From Eledone cirrhosa (Eukaryota), in contig OZ024741.1 in the NCBI GenBank assembly GCA_964016885.1, positions 215,574,001 to 215,638,000 on the forward strand: a stretch of DNA of 64,000 bases, written 5' to 3'. This document shows, one piece after another, positions 3,314 to 61,790 of the stretch. Within the stretch, counting starts at the first letter, position 1; each line of letters begins with the position of its first letter. Made by a program: the position numbers and the translations under genes. The notes below the pieces were generated by a model that was not told the DNA's origin, made no database searches, and saw only the letters and a program-made list of their open reading frames with translations.

Positions 3314-3614
3314 GTGTGTGTGCGCGCAAAAATTAAAAGGAAAACACAACACTGTACAATGAAGAAGTATAATAATTTAACGCTTAATATAGTAGGAGGA
3401 ATAGAGACTTGACATTTCGGACACCAGTCCTTCATCAGAACATAGAATGAGAAACAGAAGATATAACAAAGAGATAGAGTGTGACAAGAGGTTGGAACGA
3501 AAAAATATATATAGGTATTTTTAGAAAAAGCACGTATATATATATATATATATATATATATAATCTTTGGTTTTTACCTAAATTGAAAATATATATATAT
3601 ATATTTATTAAATA

Positions 3615-3690
3615 ACAGATTAAAGTTTAAGCAAAGAATCGCTGCTTTCACCCTTAACGGGATCTTCTGAAACTAACAAAGTCAATCTGT
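3615..3690 (-). ncRNA. HHR-like motif with CAGAAGA core (family A pLTR)
   Basis: Reverse complement of 6720-6795. Confidence 0.65.
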
Positions 3691-4041
3691 AAACGCAGAA
3701 CTGGATATTTCAAAAAACGTTGCAACCGGAGGAAGACAGGAAGACGATAATTTGGTTCGTGGGAACGTTCGCTGGCAAAGAACGGGAAAAAACGAATAAT
3801 ACGTCATTAATAGGAGCGGTGAAAAACAATTACGCGCGAAGACAGAACCACGTTTATGGTATAAAAGAGGTCGTAGACTAATGTTCTCTTAGGTGGAGCA
3901 TAGAGACGTTCTCTGGCAATGAACGAAAAAACGAAGATAATAAGCCTTATGTGGAGCGTGGAGAACAATAGCACGCAAAGACAAAACCACGTAAATGGTA
4001 TAGCAGAAGTCGTAGACTAAAATTCTAAGGATTCTAACGCC

Positions 4042-5809
4042 GTGCACGTCCATTCCGACAAAACTGGCAACCTATATCAAGTGGAGCGCAGTACTTACCA
4101 TCAACTACTACATAATGCTGTAACTAAGGATTACCGTAAAACTAATCGGTGCGTCATCAATGAAATCAACGACGCTGGGTTTAAAATCACATCTGATCTC
4201 AACATCCTGGACCGGACCGAACCTCTGGACCCTATTTCGCCCCACTTTACCCTGAAGGATCACAAATCCAATTTTCCGAACAACCCCTCTATTCAGCTTA
4301 TTAACCCTACGAAGTCCGATTTAGGTAGACTTAGTAAAACGATTCTTGATAGAATTATACCTGAAATTAGAAGTTTGGCCCCTCTCGCACTGTGGAACAA
4401 TTCTTTCGCGGTGATTGATTGGTTCAACGGCATACGTAACAAGGAACATTGCCGTTTTATCCAATTCGACATCAACAATTACTACTCCTCCATCACTTTA
4501 CCACTTCTCCTTAGAGCTATCAATTTCGCTAAAACACTCACAGTGGTTAAGGATTTCGAAGTTGATGTCATCCTTAATGCCCGAAAGTCGGTGATTAATT
4601 TCGACGACTCTATTTGGATTAAAAAATCCAATAGTACTCCATTCGACGTGAGTATGGGCGCCAATGACTCTGCGGAGGTTACTGATCTTATTGGCCTTTT
4701 CCTCCTTTTCTCTATCAAGGACGAATTCCCCAACGCGGGCGGTGGTTTGTACCGTGACGATGGTCTTTTGACCATGACTAAGTGCGGACCTCGTGCTTGC
4801 GACAGGATCAGAAAAGAACTCACAGCCTTCTTTAAAGGCTTCAACCTCTCTATACAGGTTGAGGCCAATCTCTCGGTCGTTAATTACCTCGACGTTACCC
4901 TCAATTTATTGAATGGGTTGTATTACCCGTATAGAAAGCCGAATGATACGCTTAATTACATAAGTAAGCATTCCAACCATCCTGCCAGCATAACCAAGAA
5001 CCTGGTAAGAAACGTTTCGTTGAGGCTTTCCCGTCTTTCCACCAACGAGCGCATTTTCAACGACCATTCCACTTATTACAATGAAGCTCTTGCTCGAAGT
5101 GGATTTGTCGATAAGGTAGCAGAGTACGAAAATAGACCTAGAAGAAATAGATCCCGTCGCATTTGTTGGTTTAACCCACCATATAATATGGAGGTGGCCA
5201 CACCATTAGCTAAGATCTTTCTTTCCCTTATTACGAAGCATTTTCACCCTACACATAAATATAGTAAAATTTTTAATAGAAATACTATTAAAATTTCTTA
5301 ATCTACGACTCCTAACCTTGCACATAACATCACAGCTTCAAATTTAGGTAAACTACCTAACCGTAGGAACACGGGCAACCCTGTAGTTAGTACTAACTGT
5401 AATTGTAGGAATCGGGCTGATTGCCCCCTATCCGGGAAATGCCTCTCTAGTAACGTTGCCCCGTAGGGCCTACATAGGGTTAACCGCCAATAGTTTCAAG
5501 CAGCGTCTTTACATGCATACCCATTCTTTTCGTTACCCTCTAAGAAGGAATATGACGTCACTTTCAGCTTATATCTGGAGTCTAAAAGACAACCACACCC
5601 AATATAAGTTACACTGGGAGATCCTAGCTAGGGCTAGATCGTATAACGGAAATAAAAGACCATGTGACCTCTGCGCCGCTGAGGCCCTGGAAATACTCTA
5701 CGCCACAGACCACATCTTAAACAAAAAATCTGAGGCAATTTCGGCTTGTAAGCATAAATTGCACAAAACTTTCCTGTATTACAGCCCCACGTTACACCCT
5801 AACGGATAG
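4042..5809 (+). pseudogene. PLE reverse transcriptase plus GIY-YIG endonuclease, disrupted
   Basis: DKTGN, LKDHK, FDINNYY, MGANDSAEV, LYRDDG, WFNPPY, CNCRNRADCP, YIGLT..FKQR, CDLC, CKH. TAC>TAA at 5299-5301 and a deletion near 5455 relative to the 59814 copy. Confidence 0.92.
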
Positions 5810-6719
5810 TACGATCTATACGTGGATATTTTACGTCTTGATATGGGAGCTAAGTATATGTTTTGTTTATTCCTTTACTTATCTGCATAGGTAAGTATAT
5901 ATTACCCGTATGTTTTGTGAAGGTATGTATACCTTCTCGTACGTATATTTGATTGTTATGGCTTATAATTTTTATATTCTGGTATTTAGGGTTTGGCTAT
6001 GTGTATACGGGAGTTTTGCGTCTGCGTGAGTATGCAGGTTCGTACGTATGGTGGGTGTGTGTATATGTGTACTTCTTGTTTTAGTTGACTTACGTCTCCG
6101 AACATTCGTGTATTTATATGTAGGTATGTGTGTGCGCTTGTTATATACGTATTTATTTACTTATATACGTTTATATAATTATTTATTTATTTGTACACAA
6201 GCATACACAAACACACATATTTATATGTGCGTGGTTTTGTATACCTATGGTAAGGTTTTGCGTATGCTTGTGTATGTACGTACTTGTTTGTGTGTATGTA
6301 TTTATTTATTTCTATTACTTCTGTATTGTATTTATTTTCTTTGTTTTTAACTCTGTAGCAGAGATTCATTTGGTCTCCTAGCTAGAATTTTAGTCTACGA
6401 CTTCTGCTATACCATTTACGTGGTTTTGTCTTTGCGTGCTATTGTTCTCCACGCTCCACATATGGCTTATTATCTTCGTTTTTTCGTTCATTGCCAGAGA
6501 ACGTCTCTATGCTCCACCTAAGAGAACATTAGTCTACGACCTCTTTTATACCATAAACGTGGTTCTGTCTTTGCGCGTAATTGTTTTTCACCGATCCTAT
6601 TAATGACGTATTATTCGTTTTTTCCCGTTCTTTGCCAGCGAACGTTACCACGAACCAAAGTATCGTCTTCCTGTCTTCCTCCGGTTGCAACGTATTTTGA
6701 AATATCCAGTTCTGCGTTT

Positions 6720-6795
6720 ACAGATTGACTTTGTTAGTTTCAGAAGATCCCGTTAAGGGTGAAAGCAGCGATTCTTTGCTTAAACTTTAATCTGT
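6720..6795 (+). ncRNA. HHR-like motif with CAGAAGA core (family A pLTR)
   Basis: ACAGAUUGA..AGUUU-CAGAAGA-UCCC guuaa GGGU-GAAA-GCAG cgauucu UUGC-UU-AAACU-UUAAUCUGU. Helices I, II and III all pair. Confidence 0.7.
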
Positions 6796-6892
6796 TATTT
6801 AATAAATATTTGCTCTACGGTTCTTATATATTTGATATATATTTATCCTTATCGAGCTCTCTTTGGATTTTAGTCTTCAATTTTATTATTAT

Positions 6893-7275
<383 letters not shown>

Positions 7276-8200: not shown

Positions 8201-8411
8201 TCTAGAGACCGCATTAGGCGCCGTTTAGCTTTCCCTCTCTCTTTTTTAGTCTGTCTTTTTAGATAGATGCATAGCTATAACGTCGCGCGCTTATAATATC
8301 TGTCTGTATGTCTGGCTGACTGCATTACGACATTATGAAAATATTGACATCGCTATCTGTGTGTTTGTGTATATATGGATATATAGTGTGTATATATATG
8401 TATATAGCGTG

Positions 8412-8521
8412 TAACATTTTTCGAAATATTTACTTCTGCGTTCACAGATTGATTTTTTTAGTTTCAGATGATTCTGTTGAGGGTGAAAACAGCGAATCTT
8501 TGCTTAACCTTTAATCTGTTA

Positions 8522-8530
<9 letters not shown>
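8412..8530 (+). mobile_element. Diverged family A pLTR end with HHR-like motif (CAGAUGA core, 8444-8519)
   Basis: Aligns by eye to 6688-6803. Confidence 0.7.
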
Positions 8531-8574
<44 letters not shown>

Positions 8575-12525: not shown

Positions 12526-12700
12526 AACAACTAGTACTACTACTACTACTACTACTAATAATAATAATAATAATAATACTACTAATACTACTACTAATAC
12601 TACTAACGGTACAACTGCATGTACTACTACTATTGCTACAACAACTGAAGCAACCACAACTACTACCACTACCTCTACTACTACTACCACCACTACCCAA
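11812..12700. repeat. Compound trinucleotide microsatellites (GTT)n, (CCT)n, (ACT)n, (AAT)n
   Basis: Direct reading. Confidence 0.95.
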
Positions 12701-12835
12701 TCATACGTGTAACAGTATGAAACTTCTAAGATTCTGTTAAGATATCACCAGCCTTCCCCGCCCTTTCCCGGCGGAGTTGATGTCTTTTATATATATATAT
12801 ATACTGCTTCTTTTACGTTATTTTATGTATTTCAG

Positions 12836-15800
12836 GTGTGGGGGGGGTAACTGTGGTGGTGGTGGTGGTGGTGGCGGTAGTGGTAGTGGTGGTGATGGTA
12901 TTGGTGGTGGTGGTGGTGATGGTGGTAGTGGTGGTAGTGGTAGTGGTGATGCTGGTAGTGGTGGTGGTAGTGGTGGTAGTGGTAGTGGTGATGCTGGTGG
13001 TGGTGGTGGTGGAGTTGGTGGTAGTGGAGGTGATGGTATTTGTGGTGGTGGTGGTGATGGTGGTAGTGGTGGTAGTGGTAGTGGTAGTGGTGATGCTGGT
13101 AGTGGTGGTGGTAGTGGTGGTAGTGGTAGTGGTGATGCTGGTGGTGGTGGTGGTGGAGTTGGTGGTAGTGGAGGTGATGGTATTGGTGGTGGTGGTGGTA
13201 GTGGTGGTAGTGGTAGTGGTGATGCTGGTAGTGGTGGTGGTAGTGGTGGTAGTGGTAGTGGTGATGCTGGTGGTGGTGGTGGTGGAGTTGGTGGTAGTGG
13301 AGGTGATGGTATTTGTGGTGGTGGTGGTGATGGTGGTAGTGGTGGTAGTGGTAGTGGTTGTGGTGATGCTGGTAGTGGTGGTGGTAGTGGTGGTAGTGGT
13401 AGTAGTGATGCTGGTGGTGGTGGTGGTGGAGTTGGTGGTAGTGGAGGTGATGGTATTGGTGGTGGTGGTGGTAGTGGTGGTAGTGGTAGTGGTGATGCTG
13501 GTAGTGGTGGTGGTAGTGGTGGTAGTGGTAGTGGTGATGCTGGTAGTGGTGGTAGTGGTAGTGGTGATGCTGGTAGTGGTGGTGGTAGTGGTGCTGGTAG
13601 TGGTGGTGGTAGTGGTGGTAGTGGTAGTGGTGATGCTGGTGGTGGTAGTGGTGGTGATGGTATTGGTGGTGGTGGTGGTAGTGGTGGTTTTAGTGGTGGT
13701 GGTAGTGGTGGTGGTGGTGATGGTATTGGTGGTGGTGGTGGTAGTGGGGGTAGTGGTAGTGGTGATGCTGGTGGTGGTTGTGGTGATGGTTTTGTGTTGG
13801 TGGTAGTGGTGGTGATGGTATTGGTGGTGGTAGTTGTGGAGGTGGTGGTGGTTTTGGTGATGGTAGTGGTAGTGGTGGTGATGGTATTGGTGGTGGTGGT
13901 AGTGGTGGTAGTGGTAGTGTTGGTGATGGTATTGGTGATGGTGGTAGTGGTGGTAGTGGTAGTGGTGATGCTGGTGGTAGTGGTGATGCTGGTGCTAGTG
14001 GTGGTGGTGGGGAGAGGTGGTTTAGTGGTGGTGGTGGTGGTGGTAGTGGTATTGGTGGTGATGGTATTGGTGGTGGTGGTAGTGGTGGTAGTGGTAGTGG
14101 TAATGCTGGTGGTGGTGGTGGTGGGGGGAGGTCGTTTTGTGGTGGTGGTGGTGGTGATGCTACTGGTGGTGGTGATGATGCTACTGGTAGTGGTGGTGGT
14201 GATGGTGGTTGTAGTAGTAATAGTGGTGGCGTTGGTGATGGTAGTGATGGGGATAACAGTGATTATGGAAGTGTGGAAGTGATAGTTTTACTAGTGGTAG
14301 TGGTGTTGTTGGTGGCGTTGATGGTGCTGGTGGTAGATATGGAAGTGTTGGTGGTGGTGGCAGTGGTAGTGGTGATGATGGTATTGGTGGTGGTGGTAGT
14401 GGTGGTAGTGGTAGTGGTGATGCTGGTGGTGGTGGTCGGGAGAGGTGGTTTTGTGGTGGTGGTGATGGTTGTGGTAGTGGTAGTGTTGGTGATGGTATTG
14501 GTGGTGGTGGTAGTAGTGGTAGTGGTGATTCTGGTGGTAGTAGTGGTAGTGGTGATTCTGGTGGTAGTAGTGGTGGGGAGAGGTGGTTTTGTGGTGGTGG
14601 TGGTAGTGATAGTGGTGATGCTGGTGGTGTTGGTGGTGGTAGTGGTGGTAGTGGTAGTGGTGATGCTGGTGGTGGTGGTGGTGGTGGTGGTGGTGGTGGT
14701 GGTAATGGTGGTGGCGTTGGTGGTGGTGGTGATGGTAGTGATGGTGGTGACGGGGCTGACGACAGTGATGGTGGTGATGGTGATGGTGATGGTGGTGATG
14801 GTAATGATGGTGTAGTCATGTTGATCATGGTGGTGGTGATGGTAGTGATGGTGATGACACTGATTATGGAAGTGGTTGTGATACTAGTGGTAGTGGTGTT
14901 GTTGGTGGTGTTGATGGTGCTGGTGGTAGAGATGGTAGTGTTGGTGGTGGTGGTGGTGGTGGTGGTGGTGGTGGAGGTGGTAGTGATGACATTGCTGGTG
15001 GAGGTGGAGGTGGTATTGATGGTAGTGTTGGTGGTGGTGGAGGTGGTATTGATGGTGGAGATTATAGTGCTGGTGGAGGTGGAGGTGGTAGTGATGGTAG
15101 TGCTGGTGGTGGTGGAGGTGGTATTGATGGTGGAGATTGTAGTGCTGGTGGAGGTGGAGGTGGTAGTGATGGTAGTGCTGGTGGTGATGGAGGTGGTATT
15201 GATGCTGGAGATTGTAGTGCTGGTGGTGTTGGAGGTGGTAGTGATGGTAGTGATGGTGGTGGTGGAGGTGGTATTGATGGTGGAGATTATAGTGCTGGTG
15301 GAGGTGGAGGTGGTAGTGATGGTAGTGCTGGTGGTGGTGGAGGTGGTATTGATGGTGGAGATTGTAGTGCTGGTGGAGGTGGAGGTGGTAGTGATGGTAG
15401 TGCTGGTGGTGATGGAGGTGGTATTGATGCTGGAGATTGTAGTGCTGGTGGTGTTGGAGGTGGTAGTGATGGTAGTGATGGTGGTGGTGGAGGTGGTATT
15501 GATGGTGGAGATTGTAGGGCTGGTGGTGGTGGAGGTGGTAGTGATGGTAGTGGTGGAGGTGGTATTGATGGTAGTGCTGGTGGTGATGGAGGTGGTATTG
15601 ATGCTGGAGATTGTAGTGCTGGTGGTGTTGGAGGTGGTAGTGATGGTAGTGATGGTGGTGGTGGAGGTGGTATTGATGGTGGAGATTGTAGTGCTGGTGG
15701 TGTTGGAGGTGGTATTGATGGTAGTATTAGTGCTGTTGTTGTTGGTGGTGGTGGTGGTGGTAATATTGGTAGTGCCGATGGCGGGGGTGACTGAGGAGGC

Positions 15801-16400
15801 GGTAGTGGTATTAGTGCTGGTGGTGTTGGAGGTGGTAGTGGTGGAGGTATTAGTGCTGTTGTTGTTGTTGGTGGTGGTGGTGGTGGTGGTGGTAGAGATG
15901 GTAGTGCCAATGGTGGGGGTGACTGAGGAGGTGGTAGTGTCGTAATGATGGCGCTGATGGAGCTGCTTGTGGTGGAGGTGGTAGTGCTGGTGGTGGTGGA
16001 GGTGGTAGTGTTGGTAGCGTTGGTGGTGGTGGAGGTGGTGGAAGTGGTACTGATGGCGTTGATGGAGCTTGTGGTAGTGCAGGTGGTGGTGGTGGTGGGA
16101 GTGGTGGAGGTGGTAGTGCTGGTAGTGCGTGTGGTGGTGGAGGTGGTAGTGATGATAGTGTTGGTGGTGGTGGAGGTGGTAGTGATGGTAGTGATGGTAG
16201 TGCTGGTAGTGGTGGAGGTGGTAGTGGTGATAGTGGTAGTGGTGATGTTGATGGTGATGGTGGTGGTGAAAGTGGTAGTGATACTAGTGGTAGTGGTCGT
16301 GGTGGTGCTGATGGTGATAGAGGTTGAGATGGTAGTGATGGTAGTGCTGGTAGTGGTGTAGGTGGTAGTGCTGGTGGTGGTGTAGGTGGTAGTGATAATG
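12836..16400. repeat. 3.6-kb GGT-derived low-complexity tract with higher-order repeats
   Basis: Triplet-phased ggt/agt/gat/gct/att with long duplicated blocks. Confidence 0.9.
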
Positions 16401-28503: not shown

Positions 28504-28952
28504 TTTGGGAACCATTCACGGTGTGGTTCAATGACGAATTAATTAATTAAATAATCAACAAGCAGAGCAATATATAAGAAAGTAAATCCATAGAATCATT
28601 AGATGAAATATACAGTATTTCTTCTCCCAATCAGCATAATTAACCATACAAAAAATCATTTAAACGAGGCTATAAGTTTAAAATATACCTATGAAAAAAT
28701 TATATATATATATATATATATATGGCTCTGTCTAGTTTATGTGTATGTAAACTTCTAAATTTTATATACTCCCGTAAGCTTGAGTAAAACTTTAGGCAGT
28801 ATTCGGCTGCTCTTTATAGCAACCAGCCTACTCGCCACCAGTCACCAATCACAAGCTTTCTGACTTGACCACTGACCACGTGACAATTCTTAGCCATTTT
28901 GAATCCGTTTCTGGCGGGGATCATTTAAGAAAAATCTTTGTCCAATTGAGTT

Positions 28953-29037
28953 TGTCTCCTGATGATTTCGAAACTCGTTGATTTATTCAAGATCGGATGT
29001 ATCCAAAAAGCAAATGAAACCTCCGGTGGTAGAGATA
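28953..29037 (+). ncRNA. Type I HHR with long helix II
   Basis: UGUCUC-CUGAUGA-~50 nt-GAAA-CC uccggu GG-UA-GAGAUA. Confidence 0.75.
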
Positions 29038-29338
29038 TATTTGATGACTTTGGTATGTTTATGTACATTTTTTGTTCTAACTTTGATTTTGTACCTAATT
29101 ATGTATGGTTAACTATATGTCTAATCAATTTCTACGGGCTATCAGAAATAGTGGGTAAATTTTCTGTGGCTGGCTGTGAATCGCGGATAAAAAGCTATCA
29201 TTTATTTATCTATTATTTCTTCATAGGTATATTTTAAACTTATAGCCTCGTTTAAATGATTTTTTGTATGGTTGATTATGCTGATTGGGAGAATAGATAC
29301 TGTATATATTTTATCTAATGATTCTATGGACTTACTTT

Positions 29339-31961: not shown

Positions 31962-32280
31962 ATTCAAAATATTAATAAAAGTAGACATTCACGTAATCAA
32001 AATATATTTTATTATATATATTTCGGAGGTACTGTGCTGTTTTTTCAGTACGTCCTCATCAGATAAAATACATAAATTAATGTATGACATACCACAACTA
32101 TACTGATGGTTCAATTCCAGTCTTGGCAGTGGACGTCCTGATGAGGACGTACTGAAAAAACAGCACAGTACCTCGAAATATATATAATAAAATATATTTT
32201 GATTACGTGAATGTCTACAAGTATTAATATTTTGAACTAATATTAATAACCCCAGAAAACATTTTTCTTGTTGAGTGCTT
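31962..32280. mobile_element. Inverted pLTR pair related to the 23265 family; HHRs at 32006-32069 (minus) and 32138-32193 (plus)
   Basis: AUUUUAU-CUGAUGA-GGAcGUACUG..CAGUACcUCC-GAAA-UAUAUA-UA-AUAAAAU. Confidence 0.85.
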
Positions 32281-40964: not shown

Positions 40965-41640
40965 TTATTCATTAAAATAACAGATTAAAGTTTAACCAAC
41001 GAATCGCTGCTTTCACCCTTAACGGAATCTTCTGAAATTAACAAAGTCAATCTGTAAATGCAGAAGTGGATATTTCAAAAAACGTTGCAACCGGAGGAAG
41101 ACAGGAAGACGATACTTTGGTTCGTGGAAACGTTCCCTAGCAAAGAACGGGAAAAAAACGAATATAATACGTCATTAATAGGAGCGGTGAAAAACAATTA
41201 CACGCAAAGACACAACTATGTTTATGGTATAAAAGAAGTCGTAGACTAATGTTCTCTTAGGTGGTTCATAGAGACGTTCTCTGGCAAGAAACGGAAAAAA
41301 CGAAGATAATACATCATATGTGGAAACTGGAGAACAATAGCACGCAAAGACAAAACCAGATAAATGGTATAGCTGAAGTCGTAGACTAAAATTCTAACTA
41401 GGAAACTGAATGATTCTCAGATTCAGAGTTAAGAATAAAGTAAATAAAATATAATAAAGAGGTAATTGAAATTAAATAAATACATACACGCATACAAATA
41501 CGTACATACACAAGCATACACGAAAACACTCGCCATAGGAATACAAAACCACGCAGATATAAATATGTGTGTGTGTGTGCGTGTATACGAATAAATAAGT
41601 AATAAATAAACGTATACATAAATACATAAATACGTATATA
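40965..41640 (-). mobile_element. Diverged family A 3' region/pLTR with CAGAAGA HHR-like motif (40980-41055)
   Basis: Reverse complement of ~6150-6805. Confidence 0.85.
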
Positions 41641-43008: not shown

Positions 43009-44400
43009 CATATATACATATATATACATATATATTTGTGCACATATATTTTCTTGTGTTGCACCATAGAGCATGTGTGTTTACGTATGTCATTGTGTTT
43101 ATATGTGGGTAGAGATGTGTGCTGATGTAGGTATGTATGTTGACGTGTGTATGTTGTGGGTTCGTCTTAGGGAGAAGTGTTTAGACGGGGTTCGTATTTG
43201 TTAATGAAGTAAGATTCCTTGCTGATGCGCTGGGTGTGGGTGGCATTATCTTTAAATTTGTAGAGGGGAAAGATTCTGAAGTTGGGATGATTTGGGGCGG
43301 CACAGGTATCAATGTGTTCACTCAGTGGTATTTTCCTGTATTCCCGTATTTTGATTTGGGATCTATGGACAGTCATGCGTTGGCGGAGGCTGTTTTTGGT
43401 CTGGCCTATGTATTGTTCTCGACAACCTGAACAAGTTAATACATATATTAGATTTTCCGATGAACATGTGAAATTGTGTTTTACTATAAAACGTTGTCCA
43501 TCTTTGAAATAGAATTCCGAACCCTCTATTAGGTTGATGCAAATGCCACAGTTGGGTCTATCGCATTTTTTTACTGTGGGTTTCGTTGTTGTGGTTGGCA
43601 GTATTTTGGCATGTGTTAAGATGTTTTTCATTGACTTGGATTGTCTTTTGCTCTTTATGATGTCGTGTGTTCGTAGAATTTGGTTCATTCTATAGTCCTT
43701 TTTCAATACAGCGATGTTCTGGAGGATGGTGTCAAAGGCCTCATTGTTGAGGGGGTTGTGTGTGGAGATGTATGGAAGAGCTTTTAGTTTTGGTTGATTT
43801 ACTTTAGGGTGTCTAAGGTCCTGGGTACTGAGTTTTAGGGCACGTTGGATTCCATTGTCAATTAGTGATGCAGGGTAGTCCCTGCCTATGAGTGTGTCCT
43901 TTAGTTCTTGTAGCCGTAAGTAGCAGATGTTTTTATTGCAGACTTTTTATATTCACATGACCTCTACCGACCAATCAAAATTGTTTTGACCACAAGAATT
44001 TTTGCTGGAGCCACCTTTTTAACATAAAAACAGTCTTGGCGCAAAATCAATTTTTTACATTCACATGACCTCTACCGACCAATCAAAATTGTTTTGACCA
44101 CAAGAATTTTTGCAAATTGGAGCCACGTTTTTAACATAAAAACAGGTAGAATTCCCAAAACTAATCAGATCAGAGCAAACAGCACGGACACTCTATCTCA
44201 AAATTATTTTTGAAAAGCATTTAGAAATGCGCAACCGGAAAAAACTTAAAAACTTAAAACCACAACTGAATACTAACCCATACAATCACTAATACTCTTT
44301 TATTCCTAATTAAACCATTTTTCAACTGTGAACAATTTGTCAGCATTTTCTATTCCGTTTACCAATATATAATAACTTGTGTGTTACACCTCTATTCTTT

Positions 44401-44834: not shown

Positions 44835-47800
44835 TTAATTGTAAGTTGTGATGTTGCTGTTCCACTCATATTTTCTATTTAATTTTGGTTGTAATTCTTT
44901 TATGTTTATTGCCTCTGTAATTTGTCTAAACATTGCGTCTTTTCTGTGTGTAGATTCTATTTTTATTTCTATGTTCTCTAATTTACCCTTGTGTTCTATT
45001 TTAGCATGTTGGTAGAGTACAGATGATTCTTTACTATCTTGAAGGTCTCGCCAGTGTTCATTTATCCGTTCCCCTACACTACGAGCTGTCTCACCTATGT
45101 ACACTATATTTTTGTCTCTACATTGTTCTTCAGTACATCTTATGCTATACACTACATTTCTCGTGTTACAGTTAATATGGGGGCTTATTTTACAGGTTAT
45201 ACATTTCTTATCTATACATGAGGGTCTTTGAAAAGGGTATGTCTTGCTAATAAGTGTTTTTACGGAGGTACCTGGTCTTTCTACTATCTTAATATTGAGT
45301 TTATGTTTATTTAGGGCCCTTCTAAATTTGTAAGCTCTAGGCGTTGTATCAATGAACATTACACTCTGGTATTTATTGCTATCATACCATGAGTTTATTC
45401 TATTAGCCTTGTTCCTAGTTCTTTCTATTCTATTCCAAAATTTGCTCCTATACAAGGGGCAGGTCCCATTTATGTCATTATTTACCATTTTTTCCCATTT
45501 GGTTCTGGCTCCTCTATACACTCTGATTTTATCTCTCTGATTGTAGCCAGAGAACTGCATACGGTGGATGAAGTGTTGTATGTGTCTCTCTCTAGTTCTT
45601 CGGGGTTGCACATGTGGGACACGTTTCTCATCACCCGTACTAAATCCGCAATCAGTATGTTGATTTTGGTATGGTCCGAAACGGCCGAGTTTCGGTGGAT
45701 CAGATGTTTGGAAGTCATGGGTTTGGTATAATGGGAATGGAGGATTTGTTTTTTTGTTATTAATGGTATCTAACCACAGCTCTGTGTCTAGTACAGGTAA
45801 TCGATGCTTGGGGTGTTTACTTGGGTAGTCTATAGTAACTCTAATGCTCTGGTGGATGGAGTTAGCTATTTGCTGGATGCTTTCCATTGTGTTTTTCTCT
45901 AGTTCCTGACTGTTCTCTAGTGGGGGTGTCTTAACTACGATGTTTATATCATCAACGTAGCGGGAGTACATTATCAGGGTTAAGGGGTCTTCTAATTGTT
46001 CTTTAAGCTTAAGTTTAAGTCTACTGTCCCACCATACCATGAATAAGTTAGCTATGTCGCCTGCAATGCTAACACCAATGGCTGCTCCTTCCTCTTGAGC
46101 ATATGTTTTTCTATTAAATTTGAACATATGTTTCTTAAGGATTAGTTTTATGCTGGCCCCTACCGCATGTGCAATCATTTTCTTCAGTTCATCGTGGTTT
46201 TCGGGTGTCCGTATGGCTCTGGTCCACCCGTTCCATCTATCTGTGTGCGTTTTCTTGGCCATTGAGGTAATGGTAGGTGGTCTGCCTCTTGCTGGTCTTG
46301 TAGGGCACAGGTTGCTAAGGTCATATGTGTCAAGGTAATTATTACTATAGGTAAGTTTAAGTAGGAGTCCCAGCTCACTGGTATCAATCCCACGGAACTC
46401 AACATTGCTCTCACTGATCATTTCTACGCATTTCTCCACAGCAAAATCCACGTCAATAGATGGATACAGTGACACAACATCCATACTACCTATTATGCAG
46501 TTTGTTAGGTCCCTAGATCGGTTACCCACGCCGATTCTGCTGAGGAGGTCCTCCGTGCTGTCACATACATCTGGGGACATTTCGATGATGGGGCGTATGA
46601 TCAGGGAGAGGAAGTAGGACAGTCTGTAGTTACTAGCAATGTTAGCTCCACAGACTAGCCGTGTTGGTGATCCCGCGACAGGGTCACTGCCCGTTTTATG
46701 GTCTTTTCGAAGCCCATACAACGCCAGCACGTCATTGTTCCAGGCCTGGAAGTTGTTGGCAGTCCTTTTGTTGGGCTGCATTATATTCGTCCACATCACC
46801 ATATGGGCATTGAGGGCTTTTTCTCTATCATCATGCTCCTGTGGTGTTACCTCTCTTGTGTTAGTGATGTGGGGCTGCATTGCCTGGATGTAGTTTGGCA
46901 GGCTGTCAACCGACATTCTGCCAGACTTGTCTGTTGGAAAGCATGCTATCTCTCCATTACGCGAGCGCTGCATGAGCTTACGCAAGCCATTTGTAGATTT
47001 TTCTCCCAGTTGCTGAGCCTCCATGCTATTATGCTTCTTGCTATACTGTTCTATAATATTTCTAAGTTCGGATCTAGCTATACTAAATTGTGCTTCTGTT
47101 TGTTCATCGACCTGCGACGGCAATTGTGTGCGTTTGTTAAATGTTAAAGTCGTGGCGTGGACTCGTCGCAGGTCGAACGATTTATCGGAGGGATTATAAA
47201 AACTAGAGTTCCAGGCTGCTGCTTTATGTGTACTAGTGCTATTGTTATTGTTAGTTGTGTTGTTTCTATTTCTATTTCCACCAACAGCCTCATGGTTGTT
47301 TCTATGTCTCTCATAATTACTCCTGTCTCTTTCCACTGGCTCATTGTTGTTATCTACCCTATTTTGTGTGTCTGTGTGTTCGTCTTGGTTATTTTCTTTG
47401 TCCTTAGTCTCTTTTCTACTTTTAATCCTATTACTTTCCCTTATTTCTCTGATTTCTGTGCTACTGTCATTACTTGTTTTCTGTGTCTGTGTGTTTGTTA
47501 AGATTGTGGTGGTGGTGAGAGGCATTGAATGTGCGTGTGTTGTTGTTATTGATGTGTGCTGTTGTTGATGTGTGTTGTTGTTGTCTCCGTGTGTGTTATT
47601 ATTGTTGTGTGTGTTGTTATTGTTGTTTGTGTCTGCGTGTCTGTTGTTGTTGTTTCTGGGTATGTTATTATTGTTGTTGTTGTTGGTGTGTGTGTTGTTT
47701 TTATTGTTGTTTGTGGCTGTGTGTCTGTTGTGGTTGGGATGTGTGTTGTATATGTGTGTGCGTATATTGTTGCTTTTGTTTTTGTTTTTGTTTTTGAGGC

Positions 47801-48551
47801 TCCAGCGTAGTTTTGTAAATGATTTTTCTATTTCTGACAGACAACTAATCATATTTACCTTCTTGAATGTCGCATACTTAGGTGGAAGTTGCAATGCAGA
47901 TAATTCATCGTCATCTATTATTGTGTTGCCGTATATATTTGTGTTGTTGTTGTTGAACTCATCTGTTAATGAGGTGTCGGCCATATTTATACCATCAATT
48001 TTGTCGGGATCTCTATTGGTATTCTCTATAGTATCCTGATTTAGCTTTATCTGCTTAAGCCACTTTAGTTTCTTGTTAAAGTGCTTATCACATTCTTGAG
48101 TAATGTACTGTTCTTCAGGACGTATAAAGCTTATAAATATTAGTTTCTCTCTTGGTGTGGTGATCCTAGCTATTTCTTGTATTAGGTTACGCTTATGTTT
48201 TTCTTGATGACTTAATTCTCTATAGATTTTCTTTTTCATGTTTAGAATTAGTGTTCGTTTTAGCCTGTCTGCTTGTTTTTTGGTGAGTTGTAATCTTCTT
48301 ACGTCGGTGTTGATAGTGTTGGTGTAAACTCGGGACGAGGCACATTCTTTTATGAAGTATAGTTGTCGAGATGTTATGGTTTTTCGTAGACAACAGAACA
48401 TGGTGGTTTTCAGTATCTTGTTAGCGTGGCTAAGGCTTACGATATTTCGTTTCTGAATTTGTTTAGCAAGATTCTTTATCTGAAATCGTGTGTTGAAACC
48501 GATATTGTTATACTTTGAGAGGGTCATGTTGCCAATAAGAAACACACGCAC
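44835..48551 (-). CDS. PLE polyprotein: RT plus GIY-YIG endonuclease (1238 aa, with two compensating frameshifts)
   Basis: TDKSG, YGLRKDHK, GSMDVVSLYPSI, QEEGAAIG, RYVDD, CxxxxCxxC, NVVYSIRC..YIGETARSVGERINEH, EA..I..P.LN. Confidence 0.92.
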   Translation of the reverse strand: MRVFLIGNMTLSKYNNIGFNTRFQIKNLAKQIQKRNIVSLSHANKILKTTMFCCLRKTITSRQLYFIKECASSRVYTNTINTDVRRLQLTKKQADRLKRTLILNMKKKIYRELSHQEKHKRNLIQEIARITTPREKLIFISFIRPEEQYITQECDKHFNKKLKWLKQIKLNQDTIENTNRDPDKIDGINMADTSLTDEFNNNNTNIYGNTIIDDDELSALQLPPKYATFKKVNMISCLSEIEKSFTKLRWSLKNKNKNKSNNIRTHIYNTHPNHNRHTATNNNKNNTHTNNNNNNNIPRNNNNRHADTNNNNNTHNNNNTHGDNNNTHQQQHTSITTTHAHSMPLTTTTILTNTQTQKTSNDSSTEIREIRESNRIKSRKETKDKENNQDEHTDTQNRVDNNNEPVERDRSNYERHRNNHEAVGGNRNRNNTTNNNNSTSTHKAAAWNSSFYNPSDKSFDLRRVHATTLTFNKRTQLPSQVDEQTEAQFSIARSELRNIIEQYSKKHNSMEAQQLGEKSTNGLRKLMQRSRNGEIACFPTDKSGRMSVDSLPNYIQAMQPHITNTREVTPQEHDDREKALNAHMVMWTNIMQPNKRTANNFQAWNNDVLALYGLRKDHKTGSDPVAGSPTRLVCGANIASNYRLSYFLSLIIRPIIEMSPDVCDSTEDLLSRIGVGNRSRDLTNCIIGSMDVVSLYPSIDVDFAVEKCVEMISESNVEFRGIDTSELGLLLKLTYSNNYLDTYDLSNLCPTRPARGRPPTITSMAKKTHTDRWNGWTRAIRTPENHDELKKMIAHAVGASIKLILKKHMFKFNRKTYAQEEGAAIGVSIAGDIANLFMVWWDSRLKLKLKEQLEDPLTLIMYSRYVDDINIVVKTPPLENSQELEKNTMESIQQIANSIHQSIRVTIDYPSKHPKHRLPVLDTELWLDTINNKKTNPPFPLYQTHDFQTSDPPKLGRFGPYQNQHTDCGFSTGDEKRVPHVQPRRTRERHIQHFIHRMQFSGYNQRDKIRVYRGARTKWEKMVNNDINGTCPLYRSKFWNRIERTRNKANRINSWYDSNKYQSVMFIDTTPRAYKFRRALNKHKLNIKIVERPGTSVKTLISKTYPFQRPSCIDKKCITCKISPHINCNTRNVVYSIRCTEEQCRDKNIVYIGETARSVGERINEHWRDLQDSKESSVLYQHAKIEHKGKLENIEIKIESTHRKDAMFRQITEAINIKELQPKLNRKYEWNSNITTYN

Positions 48552-49181
48552 CAGTTGCTTTCACTTCAATTTATTATTATAATAAATTTATAATAAATTT
48601 ATAAATTTATAAATTTCTGGTTGGTTGGTTGGTTCCACAACCAGATAGTTGTTTATATATTGTCATAGTTCTTTCGTCACACACTCTGTGACCTCTTCAG
48701 TGACTGGGGATTCCTTTCTTTGTTTCTGTGCCTCTCCTTTGTTCTGTCCTACGCCATTTTGTTTCTGTTTGTGTGTTGTGTGCTCAGTCTGCGCATGCGC
48801 CACATCCGGGTGTCTGTGTGTGTTTATGTTCATTTATTTATTTGTTATTTACATGTTACTGGTTGGTTGTTTGTTCTATGTGTGTGTGTGTTTTCATTTT
48901 GTCCTTAATTGTAAGTTGTGATGTTGCTGTTCCACTCATATTTTCTATTTAATTTTGGTTGTAATTCTTTTATGTTTATTGCCTCTGGTTGTGGAACCAA
49001 CCAACCAACCAGAAATTTATAAATTTATAAATTTATTATAAATTTATTATAATAATAAATTGAAGTGAAAGCAACTGGTGCGTGTGTTTCTTATTGGCAA
49101 CATAACCCTCCCAAAGTATAACAATATCGGTTTCAACACACGATTTCAGATAAAGAATATTGCTAAACAAATTCAGAAACG

Positions 49182-53456: not shown

Positions 53457-54028
53457 TGTCTGTTGACACCTGGAATATAGCTTAAGAGAAACATGACAAT
53501 AATGATATGATAGGCACCCAATATTTTGAACCGGTTTATAGAATTCTCTTGGCCTTTGTCACTCTGAGTAGAGCTTTAAAGAATTAGCTTTTAAAGAATT
53601 TCCCTTTTCTTTAAATCCATCAACCATGACCGACCCCCAACCATCTTATAGACACCTGAAATATAGGCATTGTTAGCTTAAGAGAAACTTAAAAATAAGG
53701 AGTGGCACCCCAATCTGAACTTGTTTACAGAATTCTTTCTGCTTTTGTCACTCTAAATATAAATTTTAGCCTTAAAGAATTAGCTTTTAATGAATTCCCT
53801 TTTCTTTCAACCAATGACCTCCACCCTCACCCTCCCACACTCTCCTACCACCTGAAAAGATATAAATAACACAACATTTATTTTGGAAAGCCAGATTCAT
53901 GATGATTTCTAAAGAATGAAACAATTATAGTCTTGTAGAATCTCATCTATATTAAAAGTTTTATACTCTGCTATGTATTGAGTACCTTACTTACTGTGGT
54001 CACCTCCGATTCAACCCGGAATAACTTA

Positions 54029-57660: not shown

Positions 57661-57866
57661 TAGGAACAAGTATGACCCCGACGGCAGAGCTCAAGCCGTT
57701 TCGACGGCTATTTCTGGACTATTTAGTCCTGAAATAGCAGTCGAAACGGCTTGAGCTCTGCCGTCGGGGTCATACTTGTTACTATTACCCACTCTACTAC
57801 CCTAAGTATTGAGTACTTTGGTGCGTTATGGTCGTCCATCTGGTTCCTTACCACAATTCCTTCGTT
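57661..57866 (+). repeat. Hairpin element copy 2
   Basis: aacaagtatgaccccgacggcagagctcaagccgtttcgac / gtcgaaacggcttgagctctgccgtcggggtcatacttgtt. Confidence 0.85.
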
Positions 57867-59459: not shown

Positions 59460-59660
59460 ACATAGGATCTGATAAAATATCAGGTGGACCATAACCCCGC
59501 CGAGTCCTTGATACTTGGCATAGTAGAGTGGGTAATATGAAAAAAATGCAGGTCCCCGACGCCTGAGCTCCGGCCGTTTCGACAGCTAGATCCGAACGTT
59601 CGGATTTGGCTGTCGAAACTTCCGGAACTCAGTGGTTGGGGTCCTGAGTATTTTCATTGT
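59460..59660 (-). repeat. Hairpin element copy 3 (diverged)
   Basis: Reverse complement contains gtcgaaacggccggagctc..cgggg..tattacccactctacta..gttatggtcca. Palindrome centred on tccgaacgttcgga. Confidence 0.75.
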
Positions 59661-59739
59661 TATATATATTATATATATATATACACACACACACATATAT
59701 ACACACATATATACACACACTCACATATATATATATATA

Positions 59740-60749
59740 AAGGCTTCAACCTCTCTATACAGGTTGAGGCCAATCTCTCGGTCGTTAATTACCTCGACGT
59801 TACCCTCAATTTATTGAATGGGTTGTATTACCCGTATAGAAAGTCGAATGATACGCTTAATTACATAAGTAAGCATTCCAACCATCCTGCCAGTATAACC
59901 AAGAACCTGGTAAGAAACGTTTCGTTGAGGCTTTCCCGTCTTTCCACCAACGAGCGCATTTTCAACGACCATTCCACTTATTACAATGAAGCTCTTGCTC
60001 GAAGTGGATTTGTCGATAAGGTAGCATATACAGAGTACGAAAATAGACCTAGAAGAAATAGATCCCGTCGCATTTGTTGGTTTAACCCACCATATAATAT
60101 GGAGGTGGCCACACCATTAGCTAAGATCTTTCTTTCCCTTATTACGAAGCATTTCCCCCCTACACATACATATAGTAAAATTCTTAATAGAAATACTATT
60201 AAAATTTCTTACTCTACGACTCCTAACCTTGCACATAACATCACAGCTTCAAATTTAGCTAAACTACCTAACCGTAGGAACACGTGCAACCCTGTAGGTA
60301 GTACTAACTGTAATTGTAGGAATCGGGCTGATTGCCCCCTATCCGGGAAATGCCTCTCTAGTAACATTGTCTACAAATGTAAGGTTGTAACACCCACGTC
60401 CCGTAGGGCCTACATAGGGTTAACCGCCAATAGTTTCAAGCAGCGTCTTTACATGCATACCCATTCTTTTCGTTACCCTCTAAGAAGGAATATGACGTCA
60501 CTTTCAGCTTATATCTGGAGTCTAAAAGACAACCACACCCAATATAAGTTACACTGGGAGATCCTAGCTAGGGCTAGATCGTATAACGGAAATAAAAGAC
60601 CATGTGACCTCTGCGCCGCTGAGGCCCTGGAAATACTCTACGCTACAGACCACATCTTAAACAAAAAATCTGAGGCAATTTCGGCTTGTAAACATAAATT
60701 GCACAAAACTTTCCTGTATTACAGCTCCACGTTATACCCTAACGGATAG
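59740..60749 (+). CDS. PLE RT thumb plus GIY-YIG endonuclease, open but 5'-truncated
   Basis: WFNPPY, CNCRNRADCPLSGKC, NIVYKC..YIGLT..FKQR..H, CDLC, CKH. Confidence 0.9.
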
Positions 60750-61745
60750 CACGATCTATACGTGGATATTTTACGTCTTGATGTGGGAGCTAAGTATATG
60801 TTTTGTTTATTCCTTTACTTATTTGCATAGGTAAGTATATATTACCCGTATGTTTTGTGAAGGTATGTATACCTTCTCGTACGTATATTTGACTGTTATA
60901 GCTTATAATTTTTACATATTCTGGTATTTAGGGTTTGGCTATGTGTATACGGGAGTCTTGCGTCCGCGTGAGTGTGCAGGTTCGTACGTATGGTGGGTGT
61001 GTGTATATGTGTACTTCTTGTTTTAGTTGACTTACGTCTCCGAACATTCGTGTATTTATATGTAGGTATGCGTGTGCGCTTGTTATATACGTATTTATTT
61101 ACATATATACGTTTATATAATTATTTATTTATTTGTACACAAACATACACACACACACATATTTATATGTGCGTGGTTTTGTATACCCTTGGTACGGTTT
61201 TGCGTATGCTTGTGTATGTACGTATCTGTTTGCGTGTATGTATTTATTTGTTCCTATTACTTCTGTATTGTATTTATTTACTTTGTTCTTAACTCTGTAG
61301 CGGAGATTCATTTGGTCTCCTAGTTAGAATTTTAGTCTACGATTTCTGCTATACCATTTACGTGGTTTTGTCTTTGCGTGCTATTGTTCTCCACGCTCCA
61401 CATATGACTTATTATCTTCGTTTTTTCGTTCATTGCCAGAGAACGTCTCTATGCACCACCTAAGAGAACATTAGTCTACGACCTCTTTTATACCATAAAC
61501 GTGGTTTTGTCTTTGCGCGTAATTGTTTTTCACCGCTCCTATTAATGACGTATTATTCGTTTTTTCCCGTTCTTTGCCAGCGAACGTCACCATGAACCAA
61601 AGTATCGTCTTCCTGTCTTCCTCCGGTTGCAACGTTTTTTTGAAATATCCAGTTCTGCGTTTACAGATTGACTTTGTTAGTTTCAGAAGATCCCGTTAAG
61701 GGTGAAAGCAGCGATTCTTTGCTTAAACTTTAATCTGTTATTTTA

Positions 61746-61750
<5 letters not shown>
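59740..61750 (+). mobile_element. PLE family A, second 5'-truncated copy; CAGAAGA HHR-like motif at 61663-61738
   Basis: Near-identical to 4835-6806. Confidence 0.92.

Positions 61751-61790
<40 letters not shown>

Follow-up and report, generated by a model that had tools for sequence, protein, structure and literature searches.

The U at position 4 of the hammerhead ribozyme core is nearly invariant. In the 64,000-nucleotide stretch of Eledone cirrhosa DNA analysed here (the window), a repeat family that we call family A has the layout of a hammerhead motif at positions 6720 to 6795 but carries A at this position, raising the question of whether the motif is an active ribozyme with an altered core or a fold that is kept for another role. 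An initial reading of the window from sequence alone (the sequence-only reading) had posed these two options and listed five family A copies with the core CAGA(A/U)GA. All five copies were borne out, with the core in register in each (Table 1). The CAGANGA heptamer by itself occurs in the window at chance level (15 matches against 16.2 expected), so it is the surrounding context that counts.

That context is a type I hammerhead layout, with three helices around the core and an opening at helix I, and the helices I, II and III that had been described earlier are indeed present at 6720-6795. Family A has every core feature we looked for (C3-G8, G5, A6, A9, G12, A13, A14, A15.1-U16.1 and H17) except U4, a standard requirement of the motif. 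In copy 6720, helix II is CCC/GGG and positions 10.1 and 11.1 (6748/6760) form a U.U mismatch rather than a G-C pair. The hammerhead fold of 6720-6795 is distinct from the minimum-energy fold (-13.0 versus -15.1 kcal/mol; z -0.65): unconstrained folding of this segment did not return it, and the pair probability of proximal helix I is 0.05-0.08.

Table 1. Features of family A and other hammerheads in the window (positions are window coordinates).
Feature	Position	Strand	Details
Core, copy 3615	3669-3663	-	CAGAAGA-type
Core, copy 6720	6741-6747	+	C3 A4 G5 A6 A7 G8 A9; A4 at 6742 replaces U4
Core, copy 8444	8465-8471	+	sole CAGAUGA of the five copies
Core, copy 40980	41034-41028	-	family A
Core, copy 61663	61684-61690	+	family A
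Type I hammerhead fold, complete, 3' copy of element	6720-6795	+	sequence, pair probabilities, clade-model match 6733-6789
Distal helix I, 5' strand	6720-6728	+	pairs with 6787-6795; pair probability 0.72-1.0
Bulge, 7 nt	6729-6735	+	ends in initiator-like TT/TC ahead of A6736; 8 nt in older subfamilies; varies between subfamilies
Putative capped transcription start, +1 A	6736	+	junction pile-up behind untemplated G; first base of proximal helix I
Proximal helix I	6736-6740/6782-6786	+	sequence
U10.1.U11.1 mismatch, 3-bp helix II, loop 2	6748-6760	+	loop 2 of 5-6 nt, depending on subfamily
GAAA, helix III and CUU triplet	6761-6781	+	sequence; helix III 6764-6768/6776-6780, 5 bp including G15.2-C16.2; loop 3 of 7 nt, non-palindromic; CUU at 6779-6781; predicted cut after 6781 (6781/6782)
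Inverted pLTR copy	3601-4027	-	98.6% identical to 6383-6809; hammerhead 3690-3615
RT-GIY-YIG ORF, 5'-truncated, broken	4021-5810	+	Hydra clade; DKT, CxCX5C linker
Main 3' end of insertions (putative first internal RT start)	6804-6809	+	75/162 copies
Optional tail, 5' UTR sequence	6810-6897	+	second 3' end ~6897, then (TA)n; 29/162 copies end at 6893-6898
Short decayed copy, older subfamily A2	8410-8534	+	hammerhead 8444-8519
Family A pLTR copy	40966-41396	-	hammerhead 41055-40980
Second 5'-truncated family A element	59541-61753	+	3' part of ORF, 3' UTR, hammerhead 61663-61738
Further hammerheads	2852; 8827/9242; 23310; 28951-29039; 32005-32070	+; -/+; -; +; -	
Further hammerheads	36092; 38645/38955/39511; 40040/40596; 44634/48700	-; -/-/+; -/+; -/-	

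The change had been called fixed in the family, a claim open to refutation by a majority of U4 copies, and the genome as a whole upholds it: exact matches to a 27-mer pattern number 22,369 when position 4 is A and 256 when it is C, G or T, so that A4 makes up 98.9% of 22,625. Thirty non-A4 copies that we fetched divided into 16 G, 10 U and 4 C. In seven of the ten U4 copies the truncation lies no more than ~10 nt from the core, and U4 copies therefore look like products of decay or of insertion junctions rather than an ancestral class; an ancestral U4 subfamily was rejected, as most of these copies lie at junctions. We then turned to older subfamilies, collected with a pattern on the older 3' flank that left position 4 free and fixed part of the core and stems (266 matches; control 0). 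From the 100 matches listed of these 266, 90 were fetched, the 10 omitted having mostly the young loop 2, and removal of 4 local duplicates gave 86 copies. A4 is present in 79 of them. Subfamily A2, to which the decayed window copy 8444 belongs, carries A4 as well; the helices of that copy are decayed. The A/U variation had been explained by a free position 7; among the older copies, however, A is nearly fixed there (79 of the 86), so that the variation comes down to one decayed copy.

The prediction that CUGANGA descriptors would overlook this core was supported. No Rfam hammerhead hit on family A was present among the 150 of 250 result rows that we examined, and Rfam HH9 gave a below-threshold match on another family. 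A covariance model built from 29 short-helix canonical motifs of Hydra relatives matched three window copies in register, weakly (17.1 bits, E ~0.06). Two-sided covariation across those 29 relatives is strong (111 cells, reached in 0 of 500 shuffles), the rows having been chosen by a pairing scan.

By its structure and coding sequence, the element that bears the motif is a young Hydra-clade Penelope-like element (PLE) with the hammerhead at its 3' end. In the window it runs from an inverted pLTR through a broken ORF, the 3' UTR and the hammerhead to a tail and (TA)n, and the tandem pLTRs, the inverted and 5'-truncated structure, the optional tail and the (TA)n targets are all features expected of a Hydra-clade PLE. 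Read against the description in PMC8557442, the protein has RWR, DKT, CNCRNRADC (the CxCX5C linker), CDLC and CKH; an RWK-like motif, DKT, the CxCX5C linker and CxxC/CxH around the E and N motifs, with no CCHH, match the Hydra-clade definition. A single RT ORF of ~700 aa ends in a GIY-YIG domain, with the YIG motif in the C-terminal part, and frames of 713 codons are open in 13 of 15 copies picked for that purpose. Pfam returned no family match on the two ORF fragments of the window. A search gave 483 homologues at E 1e-30 or better, and a protein search (P0003) in the same genome returned family A only. The best 118 ORF matches are 95-100% identical, many with 713-codon frames, which indicates that family A is young. 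Its core departs from the canonical CUGANGA. The 3' UTR also contains an internal duplication (6384-6504 and 6523-6645; period ~139 bp, 78-80% identical).

To place A4 in the history of the clade, we compared family A with its relatives. A4 is found in 0 of 52 distinct Hydra-relative motifs, drawn from 52 of 77 metagenome loci; 46 of these read CUGA, 2 have U3-A8, 2 have G3-C8 and 2 read CCGA, two or three of the 52 probably being false hits. All 26 published Hydra hammerhead rows are CUGA by our hand count of PMC8557442 File S2. Family B, the nearest family in this genome (~50% amino acid identity), has U4 in all 32 of its motifs, 31 of them with a U3-A8 swap, and groups with family A at 100/99 support in a tree that includes 35 of the 52 motif-bearing loci. 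Given U4 in the sister family and the lack of A4 among these relatives and published rows, A4 is likely a derived state. The same File S2 of PMC8557442 has U10.1.U11.1 in 14 of 26 rows and U17 in 10 of 26, making both features typical of the clade; with CUU also accompanying a canonical core in another family here, the CUU site loses the special standing that it had been given. Across the clade, positions 3 and 8 stay paired despite swaps of C3-G8 to U-A and G-C, an argument for catalysis being important somewhere in it. Other variant cores turned up along the way: another Hydra-like family with a U3-A8 core in the 3' UTR of loci L097 and L122, a G3-C8 core at L181 and a C4 core at L202 (position 2168).

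We next asked whether the altered motif is maintained. Among the 86 older copies, variants reach at least 25% in 10 of 22 loop or bulge columns versus 1 of 30 paired or core columns (Fisher p 3e-4), the 30 being those that the search pattern left free and the upstream columns resting on 24 intact copies. The sole variable paired column turns a G.U into an A-U. Variation in the loops involves the length and sequence of loop 2, CG versus AA in loop 3, and the bulge; these columns are partly dependent, and one reflects CpG decay. The bulge and loop 2 thus both exist and both differ between subfamilies. For core bases that the pattern had fixed, 13 unselected older copies left the majorities unchanged, with A9 read as U in 3. 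Within family A we saw no two-sided compensatory change, the signal consisting of conservation and one-sided changes. On this pattern of variation the hammerhead fold of family A looks selected.

The same data bear on a founder effect, in which an inactive ribozyme was carried along by a single master lineage and the apparent conservation reflects the few substitutions of that lineage. Decay within subfamily A1 is even, at ~1% in stems, core and loops, as in neutral insertions, and the older subfamilies were themselves found with a pattern that fixes part of the core and stems, both of which suit this explanation. We nevertheless think it very unlikely, because on the free columns the lineage changes fall in the loops and bulge and not in the stems, and because the differences between A1 and A2, about five in the 25 nt upstream and a further two in the bulge, spare the stems and core. 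Separately, a recurrent family A variant with helix II broken (GUUAAUGU) is common to several dispersed copies (L306, L313, L338, L367 and L437); the fold may have been lost in this small lineage.

Where insertions begin offers a view of the RNA that is copied. Our sample of 5' junctions comprised 338 selected copies, inverted pairs included, and in 124 of these the truncation point lies shortly 5' of the core. The most frequent junction is 6736, the first base of helix I, with 31 of the 124, and G precedes it in 24; at neighbouring junction positions the preceding base is G in 8 and A in 19 (p 5e-4 versus 6736). Genome-wide, 1,737 copies have A or G at the 6736 junction, and among 30 of these that we fetched 28 are truncated, 17 with an untemplated G and 2 with an untemplated A. 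At this site the sequence of intact copies is TTAGTT or TCAGTT, which is initiator-like. The first AUG downstream is the start of the ORF, at +204. An untemplated G at full-length 5' ends of L1 and SVA has been ascribed to copying of the cap (PMC3287187), and by analogy we infer from the junctions a capped start at 6736. RNA beginning there would lack distal helix I, and its predicted folding is weak (-5.6 versus -8.8), so the 5' copy of the motif would be expected to fold poorly. In run X4, A>G changes occur at 6720, 6736, 6764 and 6789, including A15.1, at 3-7% of depth versus <0.2% in X1; they are editing-like, in a run from another sample that is not on record as RNA and comprises contigs only.

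A start at this position makes it conceivable that constraint acts on DNA: the motif would be +1 to +50 of an internal promoter, the ribozyme dead, and the sequence, A4 included, kept for transcription. The putative start does lie 6 nt upstream of A4, at TCAGTT or TTAGTT, which resembles the initiator consensus. Moreover, Drosophila virilis Penelope is reported to have an internal promoter with initiator and DPE (PMC2377424). The changes, however, follow pairing rather than distance from +1, as loop 2 (+17 to +21) varies in sequence and length while the helices, on both strands, are fixed out to +60, and the distal helix I strand, 5' of the start, is kept too. We therefore regard a promoter constraint as unlikely.

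If cleavage shaped insertions, their ends might be expected at 6781/6782. Among 95 junctions at 6760-6795 (from 100 listed of 1,355 matches), 3 fall at 6782, where the mean is 2.6 per position. Twelve fall at 6780 and are mostly fold-backs at a local palindrome. Positions 6780-6785 together hold 25 of the 95 versus ~16 expected, a mild excess that makes a small cut fraction possible. On the 3' side, where copies were unselected, 0 of 162 end at 6781, and the main ends lie further downstream (Table 1). Neither 5' nor 3' ends thus mark the predicted cut, and cleavage as the process that defines element ends was rejected. Taken with the 5' ends at 6736, the 3' ends past the cut site suggest that inserted copies derive from capped RNA spanning it. 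The absence of cut-site ends implies only that cut RNA is not retrotransposed; such RNA could still be made and then degraded or translated.

This leaves room for an A4 core that is active. Cleavage would be rescued by contacts between the bulge and loop 2 in the complete 3' copy, or by the element's protein, and the RNA pool would be split, with cut RNA translated or destroyed and uncut RNA copied. All stems and the remainder of the core are preserved from one subfamily to the next, helix III has the length that a monomer needs, and the mild junction excess at 6780-6785 is in line with some cutting. U4C, weak in vitro, was active enough in a viroid in vivo to be viable, and U.U is the best-tolerated mismatch at 10.1/11.1 (PMC3088659); cleavage by a 5' UTR hammerhead can drive cap-independent translation (PMC13725137). 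Set against this, deep mutagenesis found little activity for single changes within CUGA (PMC9901934), A4 does not recur in the relatives' motifs or published rows counted above, cut-site ends are missing, and the active fold is not the most stable one, its proximal helix I having the low pair probability already given. We consider an active core possible, though not the outcome to expect.

Of the two options posed at the outset, we favour, from these genomic patterns, a fold that is kept while its cleavage is slow or unused for insertion. The fuller reading, to which we lean somewhat more than away, is a selected type I fold with slow or protein-helped cutting that serves as a landmark for RT starts on capped, uncut RNA. 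Transcription would begin at A6736 in a tandem or pLTR copy, leaving a 5' hammerhead without distal helix I that folds weakly, and the RNA would read through a 204-nt leader into the ORF. The RT-EN would then begin 23-28 or ~115 nt downstream of the uncut site at either hammerhead copy, yielding long insertions or very short insertions of core plus tail, with the fold acting as an RNA landmark beside the start of reverse transcription. A core change that lowers catalysis would cost little here because the uncut RNA is the template. That a protein may bind the family A fold is an idea borrowed from another clade.

Two other families in the genome served for comparison. In family C, with a canonical CUGAUGA core, many of the 5' ends fall where helix I begins, and they do not accumulate at the cut, as read by eye. 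Similar ends with a canonical core mean that uncut templates do not hinge on the altered base, a sign that A4 is tolerated without being required. The proposal that A4 is needed for cap protection was likewise weakened, since family C starts at the same position with a canonical core. In family B the 5' ends are most frequent within helix II, 18 nt ahead of GAAA (12 of 59, with G in front of 6), so that RNA starting there would be missing the 5' half of the core.

Family B (6994-7115 and 57680-57790; L273-L302) has a very long helix II and a GUC site, with its 5'-end peak at TTAGTC. Family C (53891-53945; L050, L018 and L256) has the U.U mismatch and a long helix III, and forms short palindromic insertions. 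The window contains at least 9 further hammerhead families, all with CUGA cores. Another PLE on the minus strand (44835-48560) has an open frame of 1241 codons with a long Asn/Thr-rich insert and no Pfam match, and lies between direct-repeat hammerheads that have G15.2-C16.2 and CUA as the triplet. A GIY-YIG fragment of a further PLE lies at 43167-43946 (minus strand) between 427-bp inverted repeats. L327-L330 are tandem arrays with a period of ~429 bp and a 40596-type hammerhead in each unit, resembling retrozymes, and 12700-16400 is occupied by a large array with units of 9-15 bp, in which long frames stay open in several phases.

Family A offers a natural experiment: a successful young element with an uncompensated change at a near-invariant base and a fold that looks to be under selection. 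In a single genome, CUGANGA descriptors miss tens of thousands of motifs, and assemblies alone suffice, through cap-derived G at 5' junctions, to map the transcription starts of PLEs and to test cleavage in vivo. A bolder and tentative proposal, which we hold to be rather improbable, sees in A4 a core that is tuned and still active, the first U4A hammerhead from nature, kept over several waves of amplification, in which the capped start on helix I disarms the 5' copy and slow cleavage sets the balance between translation and copying. On this proposal, the starts that the same reading of junctions places on or within the ribozyme in two other families would make siting the transcription start at the hammerhead a design general to PLEs, one that genomes alone can reveal.

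Natural hammerhead core variants are known to persist, including U3-A8, A6C, U4C and U10.1.U11.1 (Perreault et al. 2011, PMC3088659; Cervera and De la Pena 2014, PMC4209133). As described there, these are rare or compensatory, whereas the family A U4A is uncompensated and present in more than 22,000 copies. The term U4A does not occur in the main text of PMC3088659, and our literature search found no report of a U4A hammerhead or of cap-derived G in a PLE; a natural U4A core thus appears unreported, although an earlier report is possible, for example in supplementary figures. PLE hammerheads are weak in vitro (PMC4209133), and their function is treated as an open question (PMC8557442, PMC4209133).

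Among known systems, the Hydra-clade PLEs (Craig et al. 2021, PMC8557442) are like family A in having 3'-terminal, sense-strand type I hammerheads with short helix II, (TA)n targets, DKT and CxCX5C, and frequent U.U and U17. The published rows of that work are CUGA with nearly all GUH sites and short helix III, whereas family A combines A4 and G15.2-C16.2 with a loop 3 of 7 nt and a distal helix I that is bulged; its sequence also differs from the Hydra-1_oBim motif given there. In the Anolis Poseidon element PAc (Frangieh et al. 2024, PMC11167929), cleavage is protein-dependent, hammerhead mutants are reported to have no effect on insertion and uncut RNA is the main substrate. PAc resembles family A in its two internal RT starts with an optional tail, its uncut substrate and its absent cut ends; its core is canonical and overlaps the ORF start, with protein-assisted cleavage observed in vitro, whereas family A has an altered core 204 nt upstream of the AUG and evidence that is genomic. 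D. virilis Penelope (Schostak et al. 2008, PMC2377424) likewise starts inside the pLTR near the hammerhead, but there an intron ends at helix I, whereas in family A the predicted start is helix I itself and the first AUG is reached without an intron.
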